Shown here piece by piece: positions 1-11,683 of a stretch of 12,810 bases of DNA. The DNA lies in NCBI GenBank assembly GCA_049971805.1, contig JBMFKU010000032.1, forward strand, positions 1 through 12,810, written 5' to 3'. The notes beneath the pieces were generated by a model that worked only from the letters and a program-made list of their open reading frames with translations, did no database searches and was not told the origin of the DNA. The position numbers and the translations under genes are program-made. How positions within the stretch are numbered: the stretch's first letter is position 1; each line of letters opens with the position of its first letter. The DNA is from Caldisphaera sp. GTDB taxonomy: Archaea; Thermoproteota; Thermoprotei_A; Sulfolobales; Acidilobaceae.

Positions 1-628
1 GGCTTGTCAAGTTTTTGACTACAATAAATTTTAAATGGGGGATATCTTTTAGGCTTAAAGTTCTTCCAAATTCTTCGTTAATTACTTTTACATCAACTTC
101 TTTATTCCAATTTTTGCAAGATACATAAACCCTAAAATTGTTATCATAAACTATTTTCTCTGCCCATACATCTACTTCTAAATATTTACCGATTCTGGTT
201 AACAACTTTGCATTCACATCTATTTGAAACCCTAGTTCGCTCAATACATTAGCAACTATCGATTCAAGGAGTTCCCTTGATGGATTCTTACTTTGAAACA
301 TATTAGCAGCAGAAAGAAAATTCGGATTTTGTCCTTTACATGCCCTTTTTATGAAATAGCTAACAGAGCTTATAGGTCTTCCAATTTTTTCCGATATTTC
401 TAACAAAGGTCGATTTTTGTAATATTCTTTGCATATAAATTCTCCTTCTTTTTTGGTAATCTTTCCTCTAGTATTATAAGATTGTTTTCTTGAAGGGCCT
501 ATACCATGTTTTCTCAAAATTCTATAAACAGTATAAGCACCAATATTATGAGATTTAGCTATTTCAGAAATTTTTAAGCCATTAAAATAATCTTTAACTA
601 TTTTATCTTCCTCAATTTTTGTAAGCAT
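1..628 (-). CDS. Tandem-HTH plus Mrr-like PD-(D/E)XK restriction endonuclease domain protein; 3' end runs off the window
   Basis: Not in the ORF track. Manual translation from the ATG at 628 gives 209 open codons. Two HTH-like segments (KISEIAKSHNIGAYTVYRILRKHGI; PLLEISEKIGRPISSVSYFIKR) are followed by RELLESIVANVLSELGF...EVDVWAEK...VYVSCKNWNKEVDVKVINEEFGR, the typical Mrr_cat layout (E..L...GF, D, xCK, V..V.E). Confidence 0.85.
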   Translation of the reverse strand, partial: MLTKIEEDKIVKDYFNGLKISEIAKSHNIGAYTVYRILRKHGIGPSRKQSYNTRGKITKKEGEFICKEYYKNRPLLEISEKIGRPISSVSYFIKRACKGQNPNFLSAANMFQSKNPSRELLESIVANVLSELGFQIDVNAKLLTRIGKYLEVDVWAEKIVYDNNFRVYVSCKNWNKEVDVKVINEEFGRTLSLKDIPHLKFIVVKNLTS

Positions 629-659
629 CTCTATTACCAATAGAATATAATTTTCCAAA

Positions 660-993: not shown

Positions 994-1452
994 TTAAAGA
1001 GACTCAGATAGTTTTGTCACATTATTTATATATTCACTTAATGTCCTACAATAATTATTTTTATCGTCTTTATAACAATTCCTAGATTGATATTCATTCT
1101 TTGATGATGAGTACTTATTCAATAAAAATCTAGAGATTTCTCTAATTAACGAATATTTATCACCGCCAAAGATAAGTGTTTCAGCCATTTTATGCAATAG
1201 TAATGCGCCATCTTTGTCTTTTACTAAGAAATCTACAAAATTAGGAAAGCTATCAAATTTAAACTTTATATCAGATATTTTATCTAATAGTTCTTTTAAT
1301 TTAATATTAGTAGTTTGTAAACCTCTTTGAAAGTTATTAGATCTCTGTAATCTCCATAACAAAGCTTCTATTTCAAAATCAATCGAATATATAGTGAGAG
1401 ATGGTAATGAAGAAATGGATACTTTCAATTCCATTTCATGGATCCATTGCAA
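994..1452 (-). pseudogene. Helical protein, probably a 5'-truncated remnant; weak resemblance to a type III small subunit (Cmr5/Cas11-like)
   Basis: 152-aa ORF with a TTG start (ATG alternative at 1434). It overlaps head-to-head with the csx1-like fragment, leaving no intergenic space for a promoter. ISSLPSLTIYS near the N-terminus and EYINNVTKLSESL at the C-terminus loosely echo Cmr5 motifs. This is an eyeball resemblance only. Confidence 0.35.
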
Positions 1453-1884: not shown

Positions 1885-2326
1885 TTTTAATATACTAAAA
1901 ATAAATTTAATTAATTTTTTATACCCTTTGAGACTATTAAGTTTTCCTAGACTTATACTTCATCAATTAATCCATTTAATGATAAGAAATTAAAAAAGCA
2001 AGCTATGGAGAATGCAATAAAGTTAATCCTTACCTGATGATGAATTTTGCTTAAGAGGGTAATTGTATTAAGATTGTGAAAATAGTTGTGATGTATTAGG
2101 AAAGTAGATATGCTACATTAGAAAATGACTCAATAGAACCTTTTTACTCTATAGAAAAGGTATATAAGGAAGATAGTGATGTTTTTCTCAATTTATCCCA
2201 ATGATTTAGGAGTTAATGTTTACGATCCCTTAAAAGGGGTGCGCGGCCGAATTAGAAGTGGTTAAAAATAAGGAAAAGTTAAGCCGGGGGAAGGAGGGGG
2301 AGGGGAATAAACACACAAAACATATC

Positions 2327-2430
2327 ATAGCATTTAAAATTTTTAACTTTAAAATAGCAATTAACATTAGGTGATTAAATGTCTTCTAATGATACAACGA
2401 ATCTAAGAAATTTTGTAAACCAAGCAAAGG
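2327..2430 (+). repeat. Direct repeat copy 1: duplicate of the herA promoter, RBS and first 17 codons
   Basis: Ungapped match to 5976-6079 (offset 3649) with 7 mismatches in 104 bp. Includes TTTAAAATTTTTAACTTTAAAATAGCAA, AGGTGA (2369-2374) and the ATG at 2379. Confidence 0.97.
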
Positions 2431-4652
2431 CTTTAAGACTTCTTGATTTAAACAATTTAAAGTACTACTATGGAGTTAATAAGGAACCTCTTGAAATACA
2501 TGAAAAACTTTCTTTATATAAAGGCCCTAAATTTGAAGAAGAGTTAATAAATAGAAAGGAAATCTCAAATAAAATATCATTATGGGATCCGTCTAAAGAT
2601 CCTTTAGTCTATGCCATTGTTGGTGTTTCTGGAGTTGGAAAAAGCTGGCTCACTTACAGAATAGTTAGAGAAGCTTTACTTTCTGAAGCTAATATAAAAG
2701 CTTACGCAATTGATGATATGGAAAATTTTGATTATCCTAAGGATAGATCTCTTTTGCTTATAGACGATTCAAGGGTAAGTGAATCTGAGCTAAAGGAAGC
2801 ATATAAGCTACTTATAAAAGCAGTTAAAAAGCAAGAAAAAGAGGTAACAGGACCAATAATAATTACAACTACAGATATTGATTGGGACACAATTTATAAA
2901 ACAGCTCTAAATGGTCTTAATAGTGATGAGGAAAAAGAAAGATTAAAGAGCAGAACTGTAATAGTTAATGTAGGAAAAGCAAGCAAGGATGAGATGCATA
3001 AAATTCTGGATCAGCTTCTTGGAGGTAAGATTCCCATTTCTAATGATTTAAAAGAAAAAATAATTGAAAATGCTAATGGGTTACCTATAATACTTAGGTA
3101 TTTTATTGAAGGTAAAAAAGCAATAAGACAAAAAGATATAGATGAGATAGAAAAAGATCCAGTGAAATATGCCGCAAAAAAGATAGAGCAATTTTATCTA
3201 TTTGACTGCAAAATATCATCAAGAAGGAAAGAAGACAAAAAGGATTTCTTGCTAATACTTGCCCTCCTTGGTGCTATATTAAAAACTAAAAATGTAGTTT
3301 TAGGCGAGATTGATAAAGATGCACTCAATCTTATATATGGAGAAGATTATGAGAAATCATACATTATAAAATCCCTTGACGCTCTTTTTAATGAGCAAAA
3401 GAAATTAAAGACGAAACAACCTAAGATTGGGACTATAGGATTAACAATGAAAGGAATTTATACAAGGTTTCCTCTTTTCGAAACAGATCCTATTTATGGC
3501 GAAATCAGGCCAATTCACAATTCAGTTAAAAAAGGTTATGATTATTTATTTAAATCAATTTTTGAAAGTTATGAGAGTGAAATAGATGATTGCATAAAAA
3601 ATTTAAGAAGCCAAATGTATAACGTTGAAGAATATCATGAAGTTATTAATGGTATATTGAAAGAATTAGAAAGAATTCCTCAGAATTATTTTAAATTTTT
3701 TGAGGATTACCTTAAAAATAAAGAAAAATATAAGAGATATAATAATAAAAGAAAAAAGTTGGCTTATGATATATTATCGGTCGAATTTTTACATTCTCTA
3801 TGGTATAATAAGGATATTTTTGAGCTTATGGCTCTTGATGTTCTCGTAAATATTGATGATATAGATGATAAGCTTTTACATGGAATCGTTAACTTATTAT
3901 TTAATGATTTTGTTTTGAATAACATAAATGCTTTAAGCAATATTGATGATTTTCACAAACTGTTTTTGGGAGCATTAAAATCTAATGATGAATATGTTCG
4001 CTCACGTGCTTGGGAAAACTTAACAAAACTTATTGATAGGGGAATGATTGATAAAAGAGACTCGGATTACTTCCTCTCTTTATTAAAATCTAGAGATGAA
4101 AAAGTTCGTTTAACTGCTTGGGAAAACTTAACAAAACTTATTGATAGGGGAATAGTTGAATTAGAAAGTGTTAAAATAAGGAAGAATTATTTCTTATCAT
4201 TATTGAAGAGTAGTAACGAATATGTGCGATTAACTGCTTGGGCCGATCTTACGAAACTTATTAGTAAAAAAATTTTAGGTAAAAGGGAAGATTACTTCCT
4301 CTCATTATTAAGAAGTAGTAACGAATATGTACGTCTATATGCTTGGTACAACGTACTTGAGCTCATGGACAAAGGATTGGTTGATTACGAAAAGGTTAAA
4401 GAAAATAGGAGCTATTTCTTATCATTGTTGAAGAGTAATAATGAATATGTACGTTTAACTGCCTGGGAAAACTTAACAAAACTCATTTATAAAGGATTTA
4501 TCGATTTCGATAAGGTTAAAGAAAGGAAGAACTATTTCTTATCATTATTGCAATCTGAAAATAAATATGTTCGCTCACGTGCTTGGGAAAACTTAACAAA
4601 ACTTATTGACATAGGGATTTTAAGTAGAGATTATATAAAAGATAATAAATAA
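2379..4652 (+). CDS. NLR-like STAND-class P-loop NTPase with C-terminal HEAT-like repeats (757 aa)
   Basis: LINRKE pre-motif, Walker A GVSGVGKS (aa 82-89), Walker B LLLIDDS, sensor-1 IIITT and STAND GxP motif NANGLPIIL. Six 35-40-aa repeats LLKSxNEYVRLxAWENLTKLIxxG run from about aa 532. AGGTGA RBS upstream. Confidence 0.85.
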   Translation: MSSNDTTNLRNFVNQAKALRLLDLNNLKYYYGVNKEPLEIHEKLSLYKGPKFEEELINRKEISNKISLWDPSKDPLVYAIVGVSGVGKSWLTYRIVREALLSEANIKAYAIDDMENFDYPKDRSLLLIDDSRVSESELKEAYKLLIKAVKKQEKEVTGPIIITTTDIDWDTIYKTALNGLNSDEEKERLKSRTVIVNVGKASKDEMHKILDQLLGGKIPISNDLKEKIIENANGLPIILRYFIEGKKAIRQKDIDEIEKDPVKYAAKKIEQFYLFDCKISSRRKEDKKDFLLILALLGAILKTKNVVLGEIDKDALNLIYGEDYEKSYIIKSLDALFNEQKKLKTKQPKIGTIGLTMKGIYTRFPLFETDPIYGEIRPIHNSVKKGYDYLFKSIFESYESEIDDCIKNLRSQMYNVEEYHEVINGILKELERIPQNYFKFFEDYLKNKEKYKRYNNKRKKLAYDILSVEFLHSLWYNKDIFELMALDVLVNIDDIDDKLLHGIVNLLFNDFVLNNINALSNIDDFHKLFLGALKSNDEYVRSRAWENLTKLIDRGMIDKRDSDYFLSLLKSRDEKVRLTAWENLTKLIDRGIVELESVKIRKNYFLSLLKSSNEYVRLTAWADLTKLISKKILGKREDYFLSLLRSSNEYVRLYAWYNVLELMDKGLVDYEKVKENRSYFLSLLKSNNEYVRLTAWENLTKLIYKGFIDFDKVKERKNYFLSLLQSENKYVRSRAWENLTKLIDIGILSRDYIKDNK
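3972..4640 (+). repeat. Six tandem coding repeats (HEAT/ARM-like alpha-solenoid units)
   Basis: Visible in both protein and DNA. Units 1 and 6 share an identical 46-nt block (3991-4036 = 4564-4609), and GCTTGGGAAAACTTAACAAAACT or a close variant recurs in four units. Confidence 0.95.
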
Positions 4653-4931
4653 TATATTTTATTTTATATAATTAGTTGTTATCAATATTTTAATTAATTT
4701 ATGTGTTTTTGATAAATTTTCATGATAAAGGTGTGGTCTTATAACTATTTAAAAAATTAGTTGTTTATTAGCGAGCATTATTCTCAATTAATTTGAAATA
4801 TTTTAATAATAAACAACCTTTTTGTTACTGCATTCTTATACAAAGAATTTTTTTCTTTCTTTATACTTTCATTTGCTAAAAATCATACTTGTTAATTTTT
4901 AATTCAAAAATGTAAGAAATTATTATTATGA

Positions 4932-5927
4932 TTATTCGCTCAAGTCTCTCATAGCTTCAATATATCTATTCCAATCATCATAGTTTACTTCCATTAGGCT
5001 CATAGCATTAATAAAAGATATTAAATAAGTTGAGGCACTTAACCTTCTAGAAATCTTATCTGCTGCCTCTATAAAAGTCGGTATTCCTCTTATTGATGTA
5101 TTTTTTATAGAAGTCCATACACCTTCACACAATAATTCCTTATTCCTGCTCTCAACTCTGAAAACGCTATTTCTAACCTTAATGTATACCATATAACGAT
5201 AAAACTTGTTTTTCAATATCTCAACTTCTTCCTTATAAATTGGAGAAATAAATTTATCAAATCCTTTGCTCATCTCAAATACTATTATATCATCAGTTGC
5301 TCCAATATCAACTAATTTTTTATATTTTTTAGCTATGTTTTCTTCCCTGCTTAATTTTCTTGTAAAGCTTAGCCTCTTTACTATTCCTATTAGATTTTCA
5401 GTCTTCCTTTTAATATTAAGAGTTTCAAAAGCTGATTTATAAGGCTCTCCAATAATTTTTGTATATGGTCCAGGAAAAATTGGGCCATCAACAATTAAAA
5501 CCTTGCTCTTAGCGTTGTTTATGGCATAATTCTCAAGGCTTATCCTCAGCTCGTCCAAAATATTATCATCCTTATAGTTAACTGAATATTGCACATGGTT
5601 AACATTTTCAGTAACAATAAAACCTAGATCCTTTACTTTATTTATTACTTCGTTAGATCCCTTTATAGCTATAAATGGTATTGATGCATCTAAAGGTATT
5701 AATATATGCTTCCCATTATCGTTTGCGTATAGCGAAGCTAAGTAAAGGTTTGCCCCTCGTACATTTATTATCCTTGAGGAGCTGTCTAAATAACCAAATT
5801 CATCTAGAGGCTCACATCTATCAATTTCTCCTTCATAATTTATGTAACTCGTTTCATCAATAATGCCCGAAGGTAAATCTGAACCCAAGTAGCTTTCTTT
5901 ATATGATATTTCAGATAAAATCTTCAT
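4932..5927 (-). CDS. nurA: NurA-family 5'-3' nuclease (RNase H-like fold)
   Basis: Catalytic-type motifs FGYLDSSSR and LIVDGPIF, IGIVKR, and a C-terminal RGIPTFIEAADKISR. Divergent from a HerA ATPase gene. The frame stays open upstream (IFTEVDYAIRSL) without a canonical start codon. Confidence 0.88.
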   Translation of the reverse strand: MKILSEISYKESYLGSDLPSGIIDETSYINYEGEIDRCEPLDEFGYLDSSSRIINVRGANLYLASLYANDNGKHILIPLDASIPFIAIKGSNEVINKVKDLGFIVTENVNHVQYSVNYKDDNILDELRISLENYAINNAKSKVLIVDGPIFPGPYTKIIGEPYKSAFETLNIKRKTENLIGIVKRLSFTRKLSREENIAKKYKKLVDIGATDDIIVFEMSKGFDKFISPIYKEEVEILKNKFYRYMVYIKVRNSVFRVESRNKELLCEGVWTSIKNTSIRGIPTFIEAADKISRRLSASTYLISFINAMSLMEVNYDDWNRYIEAMRDLSE

Positions 5928-5975
5928 TAATGATCTTATTGCATAGTCTACTTCCGTAAAGATCCCTATTAAATT

Positions 5976-6079
5976 ATAGCGTTTAAAATTTTTAACTTTA
6001 AAATAGCAAATAACATTAGGTGATTAAATGTCTTCTAATGATACAATAGATTTAAGAAATTTTATAAACCAAGCAAAGG
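5976..6079 (+). repeat. Direct repeat copy 2: native nurA/herA divergent promoter region plus herA 5' end
   Basis: 97 of 104 positions identical to 2327-2430. Contains TATA-like TTTAAAA boxes and AGGTGA at 6018-6023 before the ATG at 6028. Confidence 0.97.
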
Positions 6080-7665
6080 AAAATGCTAGTAAAAATGGGG
6101 AAGTAGTTGGTATAGCCTCTAGGATAACCCCAATATCATATGGAAAGGAAAATAATGAAATAAAGGCAGAAATCCCATTTGAAGTATATTTAAACAAAAA
6201 ATTTTTGATAGGAAGCTATATTGGTATTTCGTTACCATTTTCAAAATCATTAATTTTAGGAAGAATAATAAATGTAGAGAGATCCGATATTTTAGCAATA
6301 TCAAAAATACCTGCTTTAACTCCAACTGAAGATATCTCCAGTTTAACAACACCTCTTTCATTAACTATTGAGCTTCTATCTGAGGAAATAAACGGAGAAG
6401 TAGTTCCCCCTTCTTCTCCAATAGACCCTCAAAGCCCCATATTTATACCAAATAAGGATTTTATAATAAGAATGCTTGGTTTGCCAAAAGAAGGGGTTGA
6501 GATTGGTAATATAATGGAGGGTTATAAAGAACTGGATATAAGATTAAAGTTAACGGATGAAATCTTAAGACATCATATATTAATTGTAGGAACTACTGGT
6601 GCTGGAAAAACTAATTTGTTAAAGGTAATTATGAGAAACAGTAACATACCTTTGATAGTTTTTGATATACAAGGTGATTATGTTAAGCCAGCAGCTGAGC
6701 TTGGATATAACATAATTGTACCAATAACAAGCGATTATTCTAAATCAGAAATTAATGATATAATAGCTAATTACTTAAAAAGGAGCAACATAAGCAATAA
6801 AGTTGATAAAATAGTAGGTCCTATGGTTTTTCTAGATGGGGAGAAAAAGTTTAAAATTAATCTAATTGGCTTTAAGCTTGTAAAAACTTATGGTTTAATA
6901 GCTGAGGTTTCACCTTTCTTCTCATCCCAAGGTGCAGCATTCTTTAAAATGTTAACAAGTAATTGTGAAGGTACTATAGATTTATGGGAAAAAAATTGCG
7001 AAAGGAACTTAAAAAGCTTGCCTTTACATCAGACAACAAAAGATAACATAATTAGATCAGTAGTATTGCTAAGGGAAACAGGAGTTATTGATACTTATAT
7101 TAAAGAAGGTAAAACCGATCTTTATTTAGATGAACCTCAATATAATGATATAATAAGCGGAAAAACAATAGTAGATTTAAGATTTGTTCTCGAGAAAGGT
7201 GTTTCTGCAGCTACCATGTCCGCTTTTATTATAGCAGAAAGAATATTTGAACTTGTTGATAGTAGGTATAAAAATGAAGGAAAGGAAACACCATTTTTAA
7301 TGATATTTGATGAAGCTCATGAATATTTTCCTCAAAGTGGGAGAGGCGATGAAGGAAAAGAGGCATTAGAAAAATTGATTAACAGAATAATGAGGTTAGG
7401 TAGGGTAAGAGGGATAGGGACGATTCTAGCTACTCATAGGCCTACGGATCTAAATGATTTGATTCTTACTTTAGCAAATACTAAGATAGCGTTGAGGGCA
7501 GACGAAGACGCGTTAATGAAAATTGGCATGGATAAATATACGAATTTATTGCAATCTTCACCAGCAGGATATGGAATAATAAGAACATTTTCTTTAAAAG
7601 TTCACGATTTGGAATTTAGATCTTTAAAGTTCGCAGAAAATTCAGAAAGAAAAGATTCAACATAA
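6028..7665 (+). CDS. herA: HerA-family ATPase/helicase (HAS barrel plus FtsK-HerA ATPase), NurA partner
   Basis: N-terminal HAS-barrel-like region (IGSYIGI...ILGRIINVER...PIDPQSPIF), RHHILIVGTTGAGKTN Walker A, IFDEAHEYF Walker B, RLGRVRG arginine finger and ATHRPTDLN motif. It is a paralogue outside the mre11/rad50 operon. Confidence 0.93.
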   Translation: MSSNDTIDLRNFINQAKENASKNGEVVGIASRITPISYGKENNEIKAEIPFEVYLNKKFLIGSYIGISLPFSKSLILGRIINVERSDILAISKIPALTPTEDISSLTTPLSLTIELLSEEINGEVVPPSSPIDPQSPIFIPNKDFIIRMLGLPKEGVEIGNIMEGYKELDIRLKLTDEILRHHILIVGTTGAGKTNLLKVIMRNSNIPLIVFDIQGDYVKPAAELGYNIIVPITSDYSKSEINDIIANYLKRSNISNKVDKIVGPMVFLDGEKKFKINLIGFKLVKTYGLIAEVSPFFSSQGAAFFKMLTSNCEGTIDLWEKNCERNLKSLPLHQTTKDNIIRSVVLLRETGVIDTYIKEGKTDLYLDEPQYNDIISGKTIVDLRFVLEKGVSAATMSAFIIAERIFELVDSRYKNEGKETPFLMIFDEAHEYFPQSGRGDEGKEALEKLINRIMRLGRVRGIGTILATHRPTDLNDLILTLANTKIALRADEDALMKIGMDKYTNLLQSSPAGYGIIRTFSLKVHDLEFRSLKFAENSERKDST

Positions 7666-9777: not shown

Positions 9778-9988
9778 TGGGGCCTGAACTAAGCATCCGT
9801 AATCCTGTTGAGGGTCTTAAAAAAGGTGTGAGGTCTATCCTTTCTCTATGATGGCCTAGGATCCCAAGAGCTCACTCAGGCTTCACCACGAGCAACTGAT
9901 AGACAAGCTGCTTCCTCTTAAACCATCTCTTTATCTCAACGCTGTCACTTGGGGTTTCTATTACTATAGCCTGACAATAAAGTGGTAA

Positions 9989-10018
9989 TCCTCGTCCTTC
10001 AGGATGGGGAGAAGGTCA
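9989..10018 (+). mobile_element. IS200/IS605-family right-end hairpin (also the 3' end of a TnpB omegaRNA scaffold)
   Basis: 9-bp stem 9989-9997/10002-10010 with two G-T pairs, a TTCA loop, then GAAGGTCA. Confidence 0.75.
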
Positions 10019-10103
10019 TTATGGAACTTTCTTTACAATTATAATATTATTTTTAAAATTAAAATGCTTAAATAATTTACCTTAGTTATAAATTTAAAAG
10101 AGA

Positions 10104-10147: not shown

Positions 10148-11683
10148 ATGGGCTTTAGGAAGGAGTTGGGGTTTTGGCACGTATTATTTTTAACGTTAGG
10201 AGCAATTATTGGTGATGCAGTAGCATTTATTCCCGTTTATGTTTTAGGTTATGATGGTCCAGCAGGTATTTTATCATGGGTTATTGCATTTCTCTTAATT
10301 ATACCTGTTGCTTTAGTTGTTATAGAACTTGGAACTATGTGGCCCAGAGCTGGTGGCGTAGCTTACTACCCAGCTAAAAGCAATGGGCCAGTTGCTGGTT
10401 CAATAAACGGTTGGTCTGCATTTTTAGGATATGCTTTAGTCACTCCAAGTTCTATAATAGCTTTTGTTGAATACCTAGCATATTATTTTCCATCATTATA
10501 TAAATCAGGTTTTCTAACTGTATTGGGTATAGTAATAAGTGCAATAATAGCTTTAATAACGTATTTGATAAACAACAAGCACGTTGGTTTAATAGGTGAC
10601 ATAAACAATTATTTAACAGTTTTAAAAATAGCTATGGTTATGATACCTGTTTTGGCTCTATTTGCCTTCTTTAATGCAAAGAACTTTAATTCACCAATTT
10701 TAGGAGGTTTTATGCCTGTTAACTTAGGCGCAATAGGTTTCTTCACTGCAGTAACATCAACAATTCTGGCATACGCTGGATTTAAGCAGCCTGTTAATTA
10801 TTCAGAAGAGGTTAAAGATCCTGGGAAGTTTATACCTAAAGCAGTTATAGCATCTTTAATAATAACAATGATAATCTATTTGGTTGAAAGCATTGCATTT
10901 TTAGGAGTTGCGGATAAAGTTATCAGTAACCCATCTCAATGGCCTTCATTAATAACTCTACCATATCCATATATAACGGCTTTGACATCAGTTAAAATAC
11001 CTTCAAATCTTCTTTTAATCTTAATATTTCTAATGATAGCAGGAACGATTATTGCCTCATATACAGATGCATTAATTTATTTTGGTGGTGCCTCAAGAGT
11101 TGGTTATTCCCTATCATTTTATGATAGATAATTCCCCAAAGTTTTCTCAAAGCTAAACAAAGAGGGAGTTCCATACATTTCGAACATATTAATATTTGTC
11201 CTATCAATAATTTACCTTCTACTTTTACCATCTTTTGCAACAATATTTACTGTTTTAATAGATGCTTTCATCTTCTCATATGCTCCATTAGCTATAAGCG
11301 TTGCAGTTTTTAGGGCTAGATATCCTGATGAGAAAAGGCCATTTAAAGTTCCAGTATCTAAAATATTATCTCCCATTGCCTTTGTTATTGGAGGTTTACT
11401 AATTTATTGGTCAGGATGGAGCGCTATTTATATAGCTGGCATATCAGTTCTCATAGGTTTGGTATTTCTTGCTTATTATCATAAAAGCATAGGAATAAAG
11501 AAGAGGGATTTCATAGCAGGAGGATGGCTACCTTTATATTTGGTTTCAACAATGATAATTTCATATTTTGGGAGCAGCAATTTAAACAAAATACCATTCC
11601 CATACGATAACATACTATTTATTGTAGTTTCATTAATATTCTATTTCTGGGGTTATGAGGCTGGAAAGAAATTTGAATACTAA
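10148..11683 (+). pseudogene. APC-family amino acid permease interrupted by one in-frame TAA (11129-11131)
   Basis: GAIIG, ELGTMWPRAGGVAYY, AYAGFKQ..YSEEVKDP and ASRVGYSLS motifs. The same frame continues YDR*FPKVFSKLNKEGVP...RARYPDEKRPFKVP through the track ORF 11459-11683 to the stop, 511 codons in total. Confidence 0.92.

Follow-up and report, generated by a model that had tools for sequence, protein, structure and literature searches.

In a 12,810-nucleotide (nt) stretch of DNA from a Caldisphaera sp. genome, analysed here in full and called the window, the open reading frame (ORF) of an NLR-like STAND NTPase opens with a near-copy of the upstream region, start codon and first codons of herA, a gene that lies further along the same stretch. 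We consider it probable that the STAND gene is a partial-duplication chimera, in which a truncated STAND body was given a herA 5' head and has since been retained. The locus is a clean archaeal example, of moderate interest, of an evolutionary process already known; what appears to be new, to judge from the sequence comparisons below, is that the recipient was the truncated half of a SIR2-STAND-HEAT gene. We found no earlier description in the literature, judged by title, of such an archaeal chimera or of this Caldisphaera herA locus. The parts of the locus that carry the argument are as follows.

2324-2430, plus strand: copy 1 of the herA 5' segment, with 55 nt of upstream sequence and 17 codons from the ATG, in frame with the STAND body
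2379-4652, plus strand: chimeric ORF of 757 amino acids (aa), made of 17 HerA-derived residues, STAND NTPase, helical region and HEAT repeats
2430-2431, plus strand: fusion breakpoint, which falls within codon 18 and is followed immediately by homology to full-length STAND relatives (LRLLDL...YYGVN.EPLEIHE)
3939-4652, plus strand: HEAT-repeat array in units of 105-120 nt, its copy number varying in frame between relatives (683, 757 and 797 aa)
4932-5927, minus strand: nurA, 331 aa, divergent from herA and within the 3649-nt interval that separates the repeat copies
5973-6079, plus strand: copy 2, the parental herA promoter and 5' end
6028-7665, plus strand: herA, 545 aa, of the 'type III coevolved' HerA cluster

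The duplicated herA start and the direction of copying

The window is the whole of one contig (C32) of a 1.52-Mb genome in 66 contigs that is 96.6% complete (G000), which was compared with 40 related genomes, including six others of the genus (seven with G000). The direct repeat 2324-2430 / 5973-6079 is 107 nt long and has eight mismatches (at 2326, 2332, 2361, 2398, 2399, 2400, 2403 and 2415), and BLAST finds only these two copies in the whole genome (E 6.5e-51 and 4.5e-40). Copy 2 begins 55 nt before herA, in the 100-nt spacer that separates it from nurA, and continues through the first 17 codons of herA and one base more. The N-terminal peptides MSSNDTTNLRNFVNQAK and MSSNDTIDLRNFINQAK are identical at 14/17 positions, and similarity between the chimera and herA ends after the first base of codon 18. 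An initial annotation of this DNA, made from the sequence alone, had given 97/104 identity over a 104-nt range and an abrupt divergence of the two proteins after 17 residues, and both observations were reproduced. Its central proposal, that a partial duplication handed the STAND gene the herA upstream region, a Shine-Dalgarno-like site, an ATG and 17 codons, is supported by sequence comparison, and capture of a putative promoter and start from herA can be regarded as well supported.

It is extremely improbable that the arrangement is an assembly mis-join, or that herA took its start from the STAND gene. The contig is of metagenome type, and in a second species-level genome of the genus (G002) the corresponding contig C1 starts exactly inside the repeat, as is expected where an assembler meets a repeated word. 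However, the repeat is not an artefact, because its copies differ from each other at eight sites and because the chimeric junction is also present in G002, in the protein record P0001 and in Logan contigs from two runs of two studies. The latter bridge the junction of herA codons and STAND body at 2430/2431 (X1 record 2 = 2368-2764; X2 record 10 = 2368-2587) and cover copy 2 from both sides; one of the two runs may be the window's own source, and a further record (L032), being a duplicate of the G002 contig, was not counted separately. As for the reverse direction, the N-terminal helix encoded by the repeat is kept in the HerA of many Sulfolobales and is found in no STAND relative outside this lineage.

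HerA orthologues of the window type were found in three of the related genomes, G002 (99% identity), G006 (75-83%) and G005 (66%), the last two starting with MSSNETINIKALIDEAKENASKNGEVVG and MNENEIIEKAKERAKKYGEVVG, respectively. In an alignment of 28 HerA orthologues, mostly from Sulfolobales and 41-99% identical, the helix l..lIeeAK.rA is conserved, with Ala16 invariant in 28/28, so the segment is native to herA. The predicted structure of HerA (mean predicted local distance difference test score, pLDDT, 84.2) has one continuous helix from residue 3 to 23 that leads into the first strand of the N-terminal barrel. Because HerA orthologues keep this helix and STAND homologues instead continue upstream, the direction of copying is herA to STAND. 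The nearest genome that lacks the STAND gene is G006, in which no STAND homologue was found.

The nurA/herA pair is present in only 4/7 genomes of the genus. The two genes are divergent in G000, G002 and G006, and in G005 (L022, 8607-11269) nurA lies upstream of herA, co-directional and with overlapping ends. The accessory herA of G006 (L023, G006:C12, 1275-2913) is split into frames of 400 and 157 codons.

The recipient gene and its relatives

An exhaustive profile-free search of 1.84 billion representatives returned 102 proteins at E up to 0.001, the majority of which align to the HEAT region alone. Where the NTPase body is matched, the match begins at query residue 7-22; for the larger relatives it begins at residue 13-22, and this point lies deep inside the relative.

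P0005, 1436 aa: match starts at position 700
P0012, 1375 aa: match starts at position 695
P0013, 1596 aa: match starts at position 718
P0015, 2067 aa: match starts at position 1399
P0006 and P0007, 1068 and 863 aa: match starts at positions 5-10

The match to P0005 extends over query residues 17-756 (phmmer, E 1.3e-104). In P0005, P0012 and P0013 it is preceded by SIR2_2 at the N-terminus (E 3e-18, 1.5e-18 and 2.8e-16) and by a first P-loop, and P0015 has a further N-terminal P-loop region in place of SIR2_2. The family architecture is thus SIR2_2, a first P-loop ATPase, a hydrophobic/coiled-coil linker, a second STAND NTPase and HEAT repeats, in archaeal proteins of 1375-2067 aa, and is found in P0005, P0012, P0013, P0015, L033:7904-12223 and L037:679-6198, on hot-spring contigs of Sulfolobales type. 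The 757-aa protein of the window is just the C-terminal NTPase and HEAT module of this family. The initial annotation had suggested that STAND homologues might differ at the N-terminus, for instance by an effector domain, and that herA orthologues would keep theirs; this is what we find, the STAND homologues being far longer and including the SIR2_2 effector domain. It had recognised the chimera and missed that its recipient is a 5'-truncated half gene.

In scans of contigs from genomes and metagenomes, 21 STAND-family loci came to light; 18 were examined, and 14 of these have a complete 5' end. In 11 of these 14, between 330 and 750 in-frame codons lie upstream of the point that matches window codon 18. 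The other three are short (L046, L050 and L052) and have the N-module directly upstream in another frame, so they are split or frameshifted rather than orphaned. In these three (L052:4-1897, L046:1-2198, L050:72-2611) the frame changes within about 100 codons of the module boundary, which is the window's fusion point; the boundary may be a recurrent point of fission, or the three may be frameshifted pseudogenes.

L034, the closest of the STAND relatives, shares 54% identity with the query over residues 3-430, where its contig ends; its upstream part has a P-loop, a hydrophobic stretch and a coiled coil, in all about 347 residues. At the junction L034 reads ...IRSEMIRAEGLRLLDLDELKNYYGVNMEPLEIHE and the window reads ...NFVNQAKALRLLDLNNLKYYYGVNKEPLEIHE (in a longer form, ...LRNFVNQAKALRLLDLNNLKYYYGVNKEPLEIHE), and family homology begins exactly where similarity to herA stops. 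Neither missing part turned up elsewhere in this 96.6%-complete genome: the STAND N-module was not found by tblastn with six N-terminal parts (best E 0.01, an unrelated P-loop), and no SIR2_2 domain was found.

The predicted protein retains the features of a STAND NTPase. The match to nSTAND3 (PF20720, aa 79-213, E 1.9e-6) is marginal at 28.1 bits against a cut-off of 27.2; among the relatives, P0004 reaches 38.3 bits and L034 30.0. Walker A (G82-S89) and Walker B (D129-D130) are present, with G82, G85, G87, K88, S89, D129 and D130 invariant in an alignment of 11 sequences (A3), in which the window protein keeps 30/30 family-invariant columns, those of Walker A and B included. HEAT repeats (PF02985, E 1.3e-15) occupy about aa 521-757, with six units at 3974-4624. 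Ahead of the NTPase there are just the 17 HerA-derived residues and about 60 family residues, and no N-terminal effector domain.

An AlphaFold2 model from an 11-row alignment has a mean pLDDT of 78.5; residues 1-16 are below 50, and from about residue 19 the fold is confident: the NTPase is Rossmann-like, and helical domains and HEAT helices are present. Its best Foldseek match in the PDB is the STAND-TPR protein 6mfv (E 8.8e-7), followed, at E to 2e-4, by SAMD9, EfAvs5 (SIR2-STAND, 9jap), NLRC4 and Apaf-1, and also by HEAT proteins such as PP2A-A. The template modelling (TM) scores are low, 0.2-0.27, for a model that has several domains, and the matches show a shared architecture rather than a close match of folds.

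We considered whether a place beside nurA and herA is a habit of the family and rejected this, since L033 (1439 aa), which comes from a complete Sulfolobales genome and is the only full-length relative whose surroundings can be read, adjoins Cas3, with a RAMP gene near, and has neither nurA nor herA within 10 kb. A foreign origin of the STAND gene by composition was likewise rejected, its G+C content (29.2% against 31.2% for the genome) giving no signal.

Retention and the two halves of the captured piece

The chimera is found in three records, namely the window, G002 and P0001. The gene order STAND-nurA-herA of G002 is that of the window, and its STAND protein has 683 aa and starts with MSSKDTTNLRNFTNEAK; P0001 has 797 aa, is 95% identical and has exactly the head of the window protein. 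These differences in length are whole HEAT units. Between G000 and G002 the STAND gene has accumulated 27.8 synonymous and 37.2 non-synonymous changes, a synonymous excess over the neutral expectation (p 1.6e-5), and the ratio of non-synonymous to synonymous rates (dN/dS, Nei-Gojobori) is 0.32, compared to 0.18 for NurA and 0.13 for HerA. The chimera is thus under purifying selection, looser than that on its nurA and herA neighbours. That it has been retained, as the initial annotation had proposed, agrees with the intact frame, with this dN/dS of 0.32 and with its presence in at least two lineages.

We regard it as unlikely that the gene is a dead relic, that is, a truncated STAND fragment placed in frame with a herA start by chance, unexpressed or functionless and slowly decaying. 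A relic would be in fitting company here, next to 5'-truncated Cas8a2 and Csx1 fragments and the remnant of a transposon, and would suit the loss of the effector half, a dN/dS 2-2.5 times that of the neighbours and the absence of the STAND gene from 5/6 other genomes of the genus. However, a frame of 757 codons stays open in a genome of 31% G+C, the three records change repeat number in frame, the synonymous excess is clear, all 30 family-invariant residues are kept, and the promoter copy stays nearly identical to that of herA. The locus also shows an NLR-like sensor half surviving under selection after the loss of its effector.

The non-coding half of the captured piece contains plausible expression signals. 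An AGGTGA Shine-Dalgarno-like motif starts 10 nt before the ATG of the chimera, within the range in which such motifs peak genome-wide (-13 to -9; 201 occurrences among 701 long ORFs), and A/T-rich TATA-like hexamers lie at -46, -38 and -31. Even G006, in which the first 17 codons have changed at many sites, keeps the 50 nt ahead of herA nearly unchanged. Since its promoter copy has stayed nearly identical to that of herA, the chimera is probably transcribed under the same control as herA. The initial annotation had noted that the non-coding half is better conserved between the copies than the coding half. Its counts are right, but in the window alone the difference is not significant (2/52 mismatches upstream and 5/51 in the coding part; p 0.27-0.44, Fisher) and becomes so only with G002 (0/52 and 7/51; p 0.006). 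Pooling the two genomes, which are not independent, gives 2/104 against 12/102 (p 0.005).

Purifying selection is one reading of this pattern; gene conversion, which the annotation overlooked as a possible cause beside selection, is another. Two upstream states, with polarity taken from G006, are common to both paralogues of one genome only, a shorter A-run in G000 and an A-to-G change in G002, whereas differences in the coding half group by gene. These two informative sites are a hint of gene conversion in the promoter half, as an alternative or a supplement to selection, and the locus offers a small test case for the homogenisation of a promoter between two unrelated genes.

The coding half has behaved differently. 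Between G000 and G002 the 17 captured STAND codons differ at 7/51 nt and 3/17 residues, compared to 58/1995 nt and 31/665 residues in the rest of the gene (p 0.0009 and 0.048), a divergence about 4.7 times faster, and the first 17 codons of herA itself differ at 2/51. The substitutions in the STAND copy hit positions conserved in HerA, Ile7 and Ile13 (I7T, I13V/T). Moreover, the breakpoint at residue 17/18 cuts the HerA helix, so that residues 3-17, the first 15 of its 21, were copied.

These observations bear on another idea of the initial annotation, that the shared helix is a docking or mimic peptide by which the STAND protein binds NurA or the HerA ring, or competes for a partner of HerA. 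The N-terminal barrel of HerA is the face bound by NurA. The helix that directly precedes it is conserved family-wide, Ala16 throughout, and STAND, nurA and herA stay together in G000 and G002, which would favour such a role. A conserved docking function is nevertheless very improbable, because the captured codons diverge fast and have changed where HerA is conserved, because they are modelled with low confidence and are not packed on the fold, and because the helix is cut. The claim is thus not supported, and the 17 residues are most likely passengers of the captured promoter and start.

A functional link between the STAND protein and its neighbours could also take a bolder form, in which the orphan STAND-HEAT protein is a rewired sensor that has lost its own SIR2/ATPase effector half, is expressed from a promoter which gene conversion keeps identical to that of herA, and acts through the NurA-HerA nuclease-translocase. 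We think this quite unlikely; if true, an NLR-like sensor would have swapped its effector by changing its regulatory head and not by domain fusion.

Route of origin, parallels and the surrounding island

In the partial-duplication account that we favour, a 5'-truncated STAND gene would have regained an A/T-rich core promoter, a normally spaced AGGTGA and a start codon by means of a copied piece of herA. The simplest route would be one tandem duplication of a 3649-nt unit, from STAND codon 18 through herA codon 17, the join point of which would create the chimera and leave both parents intact. Next, a deletion would have removed the parental STAND gene upstream together with the first copy of nurA, and its edge would be marked by the remnant of a TnpB-related transposon; afterwards the frame of the chimera would have been kept open under purifying selection and its promoter copy would have stayed nearly identical to that of herA. 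The codons at the junction (marked here by a slash) are CAA GCA AAG G/AA in herA, CAA GCA AAG G/CT TTA AGA in the chimera and AGA GCA GAA GGC TTA AGG in L034, and a few bases of microhomology between herA and L034 (A-GCA-nAn-G) may have guided the join.

Several points weigh against this account. The microhomology is read from L034, a 54%-identical relative and not the true parent, and a full-length parental STAND gene was found in none of the six other genomes of the genus, the tandem intermediate being hypothetical. Alternatively, the 107-nt piece may have been inserted directly at an ectopic site, or the STAND fragment may have come in by transfer. Use of the copy 1 promoter is something we infer, the promoter boxes were assigned by eye and the genome-wide peak of TATA-like hexamers, at -40 to -37, is weak. 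Finally, the dN/dS of the STAND gene is the loosest of the three, as given above.

Upstream of copy 1 (1-2323) no relics of nurA, of the STAND N-module or of the HEAT-repeat 3' end were found. What does lie there, and was missed in the initial account of the surroundings of copy 1, is a transposon remnant 9 nt from its left edge.

1918-2314, plus strand: 3' remnant of a dispersed element, with 9 nt between its end and copy 1; the genome has 10 or more copies, 69-81% identical
C15:16028-16362, C33:9215-9466, C13:36576-36848 and C6:65056-65208: copies of the element in G000
C27:6698-6914, C22:5141-5395 and contigs C36, C39, C34 and C49: further copies in G000

The copies are about 270-400 nt long, several of them at contig ends. 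The dispersed repeat consists of the tail of an ORF and the right end of the element, and a full copy, on C27, follows a 361-aa ORF. This ORF is nearest to protein-atlas clusters related to the TnpB of IS200/IS605 (score 0.96), which serves as a lead, and it has no Pfam match at E up to 5. The conserved non-coding tail of the element may encode a guide-type RNA. The position of the remnant is consistent with a transposon-associated deletion.

A HEAT-repeat relic at 1918-2028 (tblastn E 0.63-11), which would have favoured the tandem-duplication route, was considered and rejected, because these letters turned out to be the end of the transposon's own reading frame (TYTSS...), which other copies share. 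A G-rich tract, GGGGGAAGGAGGGGGAGGGG, lies at 2286-2305 within the remnant, in a genome of 31% G+C; it is absent from other copies, and its length differs by one G in the X1 and X2 contigs. A tRNA or att site at the G+C-rich patch upstream of the chimera was also rejected, since the patch belongs to the dispersed element, and no RNA genes were found in 1885-2378 (Rfam at E up to 1, ARAGORN).

Promoter capture is reportedly known from rnk-citT in the E. coli long-term evolution experiment. Chimeric genes at the join points of tandem duplications have been described among the tandem duplications of Drosophila yakuba (PMC5460883). As in such chimeras, the 5' regulatory region and first codons of a donor front the 3' part of another gene, and an intact parent remains. 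Unlike them, the case of the window is archaeal and lies in a defence island, its recipient is a half gene without effector domains, only 107 nt of its duplicated unit are now left, and its promoter copies appear homogenised. Both parents are still readable, the donor herA standing intact at a distance of 3.65 kb and the recipient having full-length relatives in other thermophilic archaea, which makes the locus an unusually clean natural record of a truncated defence-island gene regaining a promoter, a ribosome-binding site and a start codon.

The protein resembles antiviral SIR2-STAND NTPases (Avs5-type, EfAvs5 9jap) and NLR-like proteins in its P-loop STAND NTPase, helical region and C-terminal repeat sensor, and its full-length relatives carry an N-terminal SIR2_2 as Avs5-type proteins do. 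It differs from the Avs5 type in that it has no effector domain and in that its family has two P-loop modules, a hydrophobic/coiled-coil linker and HEAT repeats. The Sir2-type domain and HEAT-repeat region of the full-length relatives also recall DSR2, a likeness by description, and DSR2 is not known to have a STAND NTPase. DSR2 is described as a Sir2 NADase with a HEAT-repeat sensor (PMC11263360).

HerA and NurA of the window match the PADLOC 'Type III coevolved' profiles PDLC01055 (E 5.6e-56) and PDLC01056 (E 3.7e-16), models that derive from clusters 57 and 58 of Shah et al. 2018 (PMC6546367). They lie beside CRISPR-associated fragments; unlike the type III-associated pairs of that work, they have no intact type III CRISPR-Cas interference module next to them in the window, to which the search for type III genes was confined. 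Their genes are divergent here and co-directional in G005. Bacterial SIR2-HerA defence (PMC11514289, PMC11472057) likewise brings a HerA ATPase and a SIR2-family lineage into one defence context, but in the window the SIR2 part is lost, HerA is paired with NurA, and the link of STAND to HerA is one of gene neighbourhood.

The CRISPR-associated fragments lie upstream of the transposon remnant.

994-1452, minus strand: C-terminal fragment of Cas8a2/Csa4, 5'-truncated, with an open frame of 152 codons
1438-1884, plus strand: HEPN fragment of Csx1, 5'-truncated, with an open frame of 148 codons

They abut head to head with an overlap of 15 nt (994-1884), which gives this island its second rearrangement joint. 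The initial description of the region as full of pseudogenes was right only in part: these two fragments are 5'-truncated, and an amino-acid permease ORF at 10148-11131 (plus strand) is short at its C-terminus. The latter spans profile positions 1-291 of 427 only and is probably truncated or frameshifted. At the other end of the window, an ORF at 2-658 (minus strand) runs off the end and has two helix-turn-helix regions, which weakly resemble Cbp1, a CRISPR repeat-binding protein (E 8e-6), fused to an Mrr-type restriction endonuclease domain (E 1.3e-5). At 9950-10032 (plus strand) there is a sub-threshold Rfam match to the HgcC family RNA (25.1 bits against a gathering score of 50, E 0.021).

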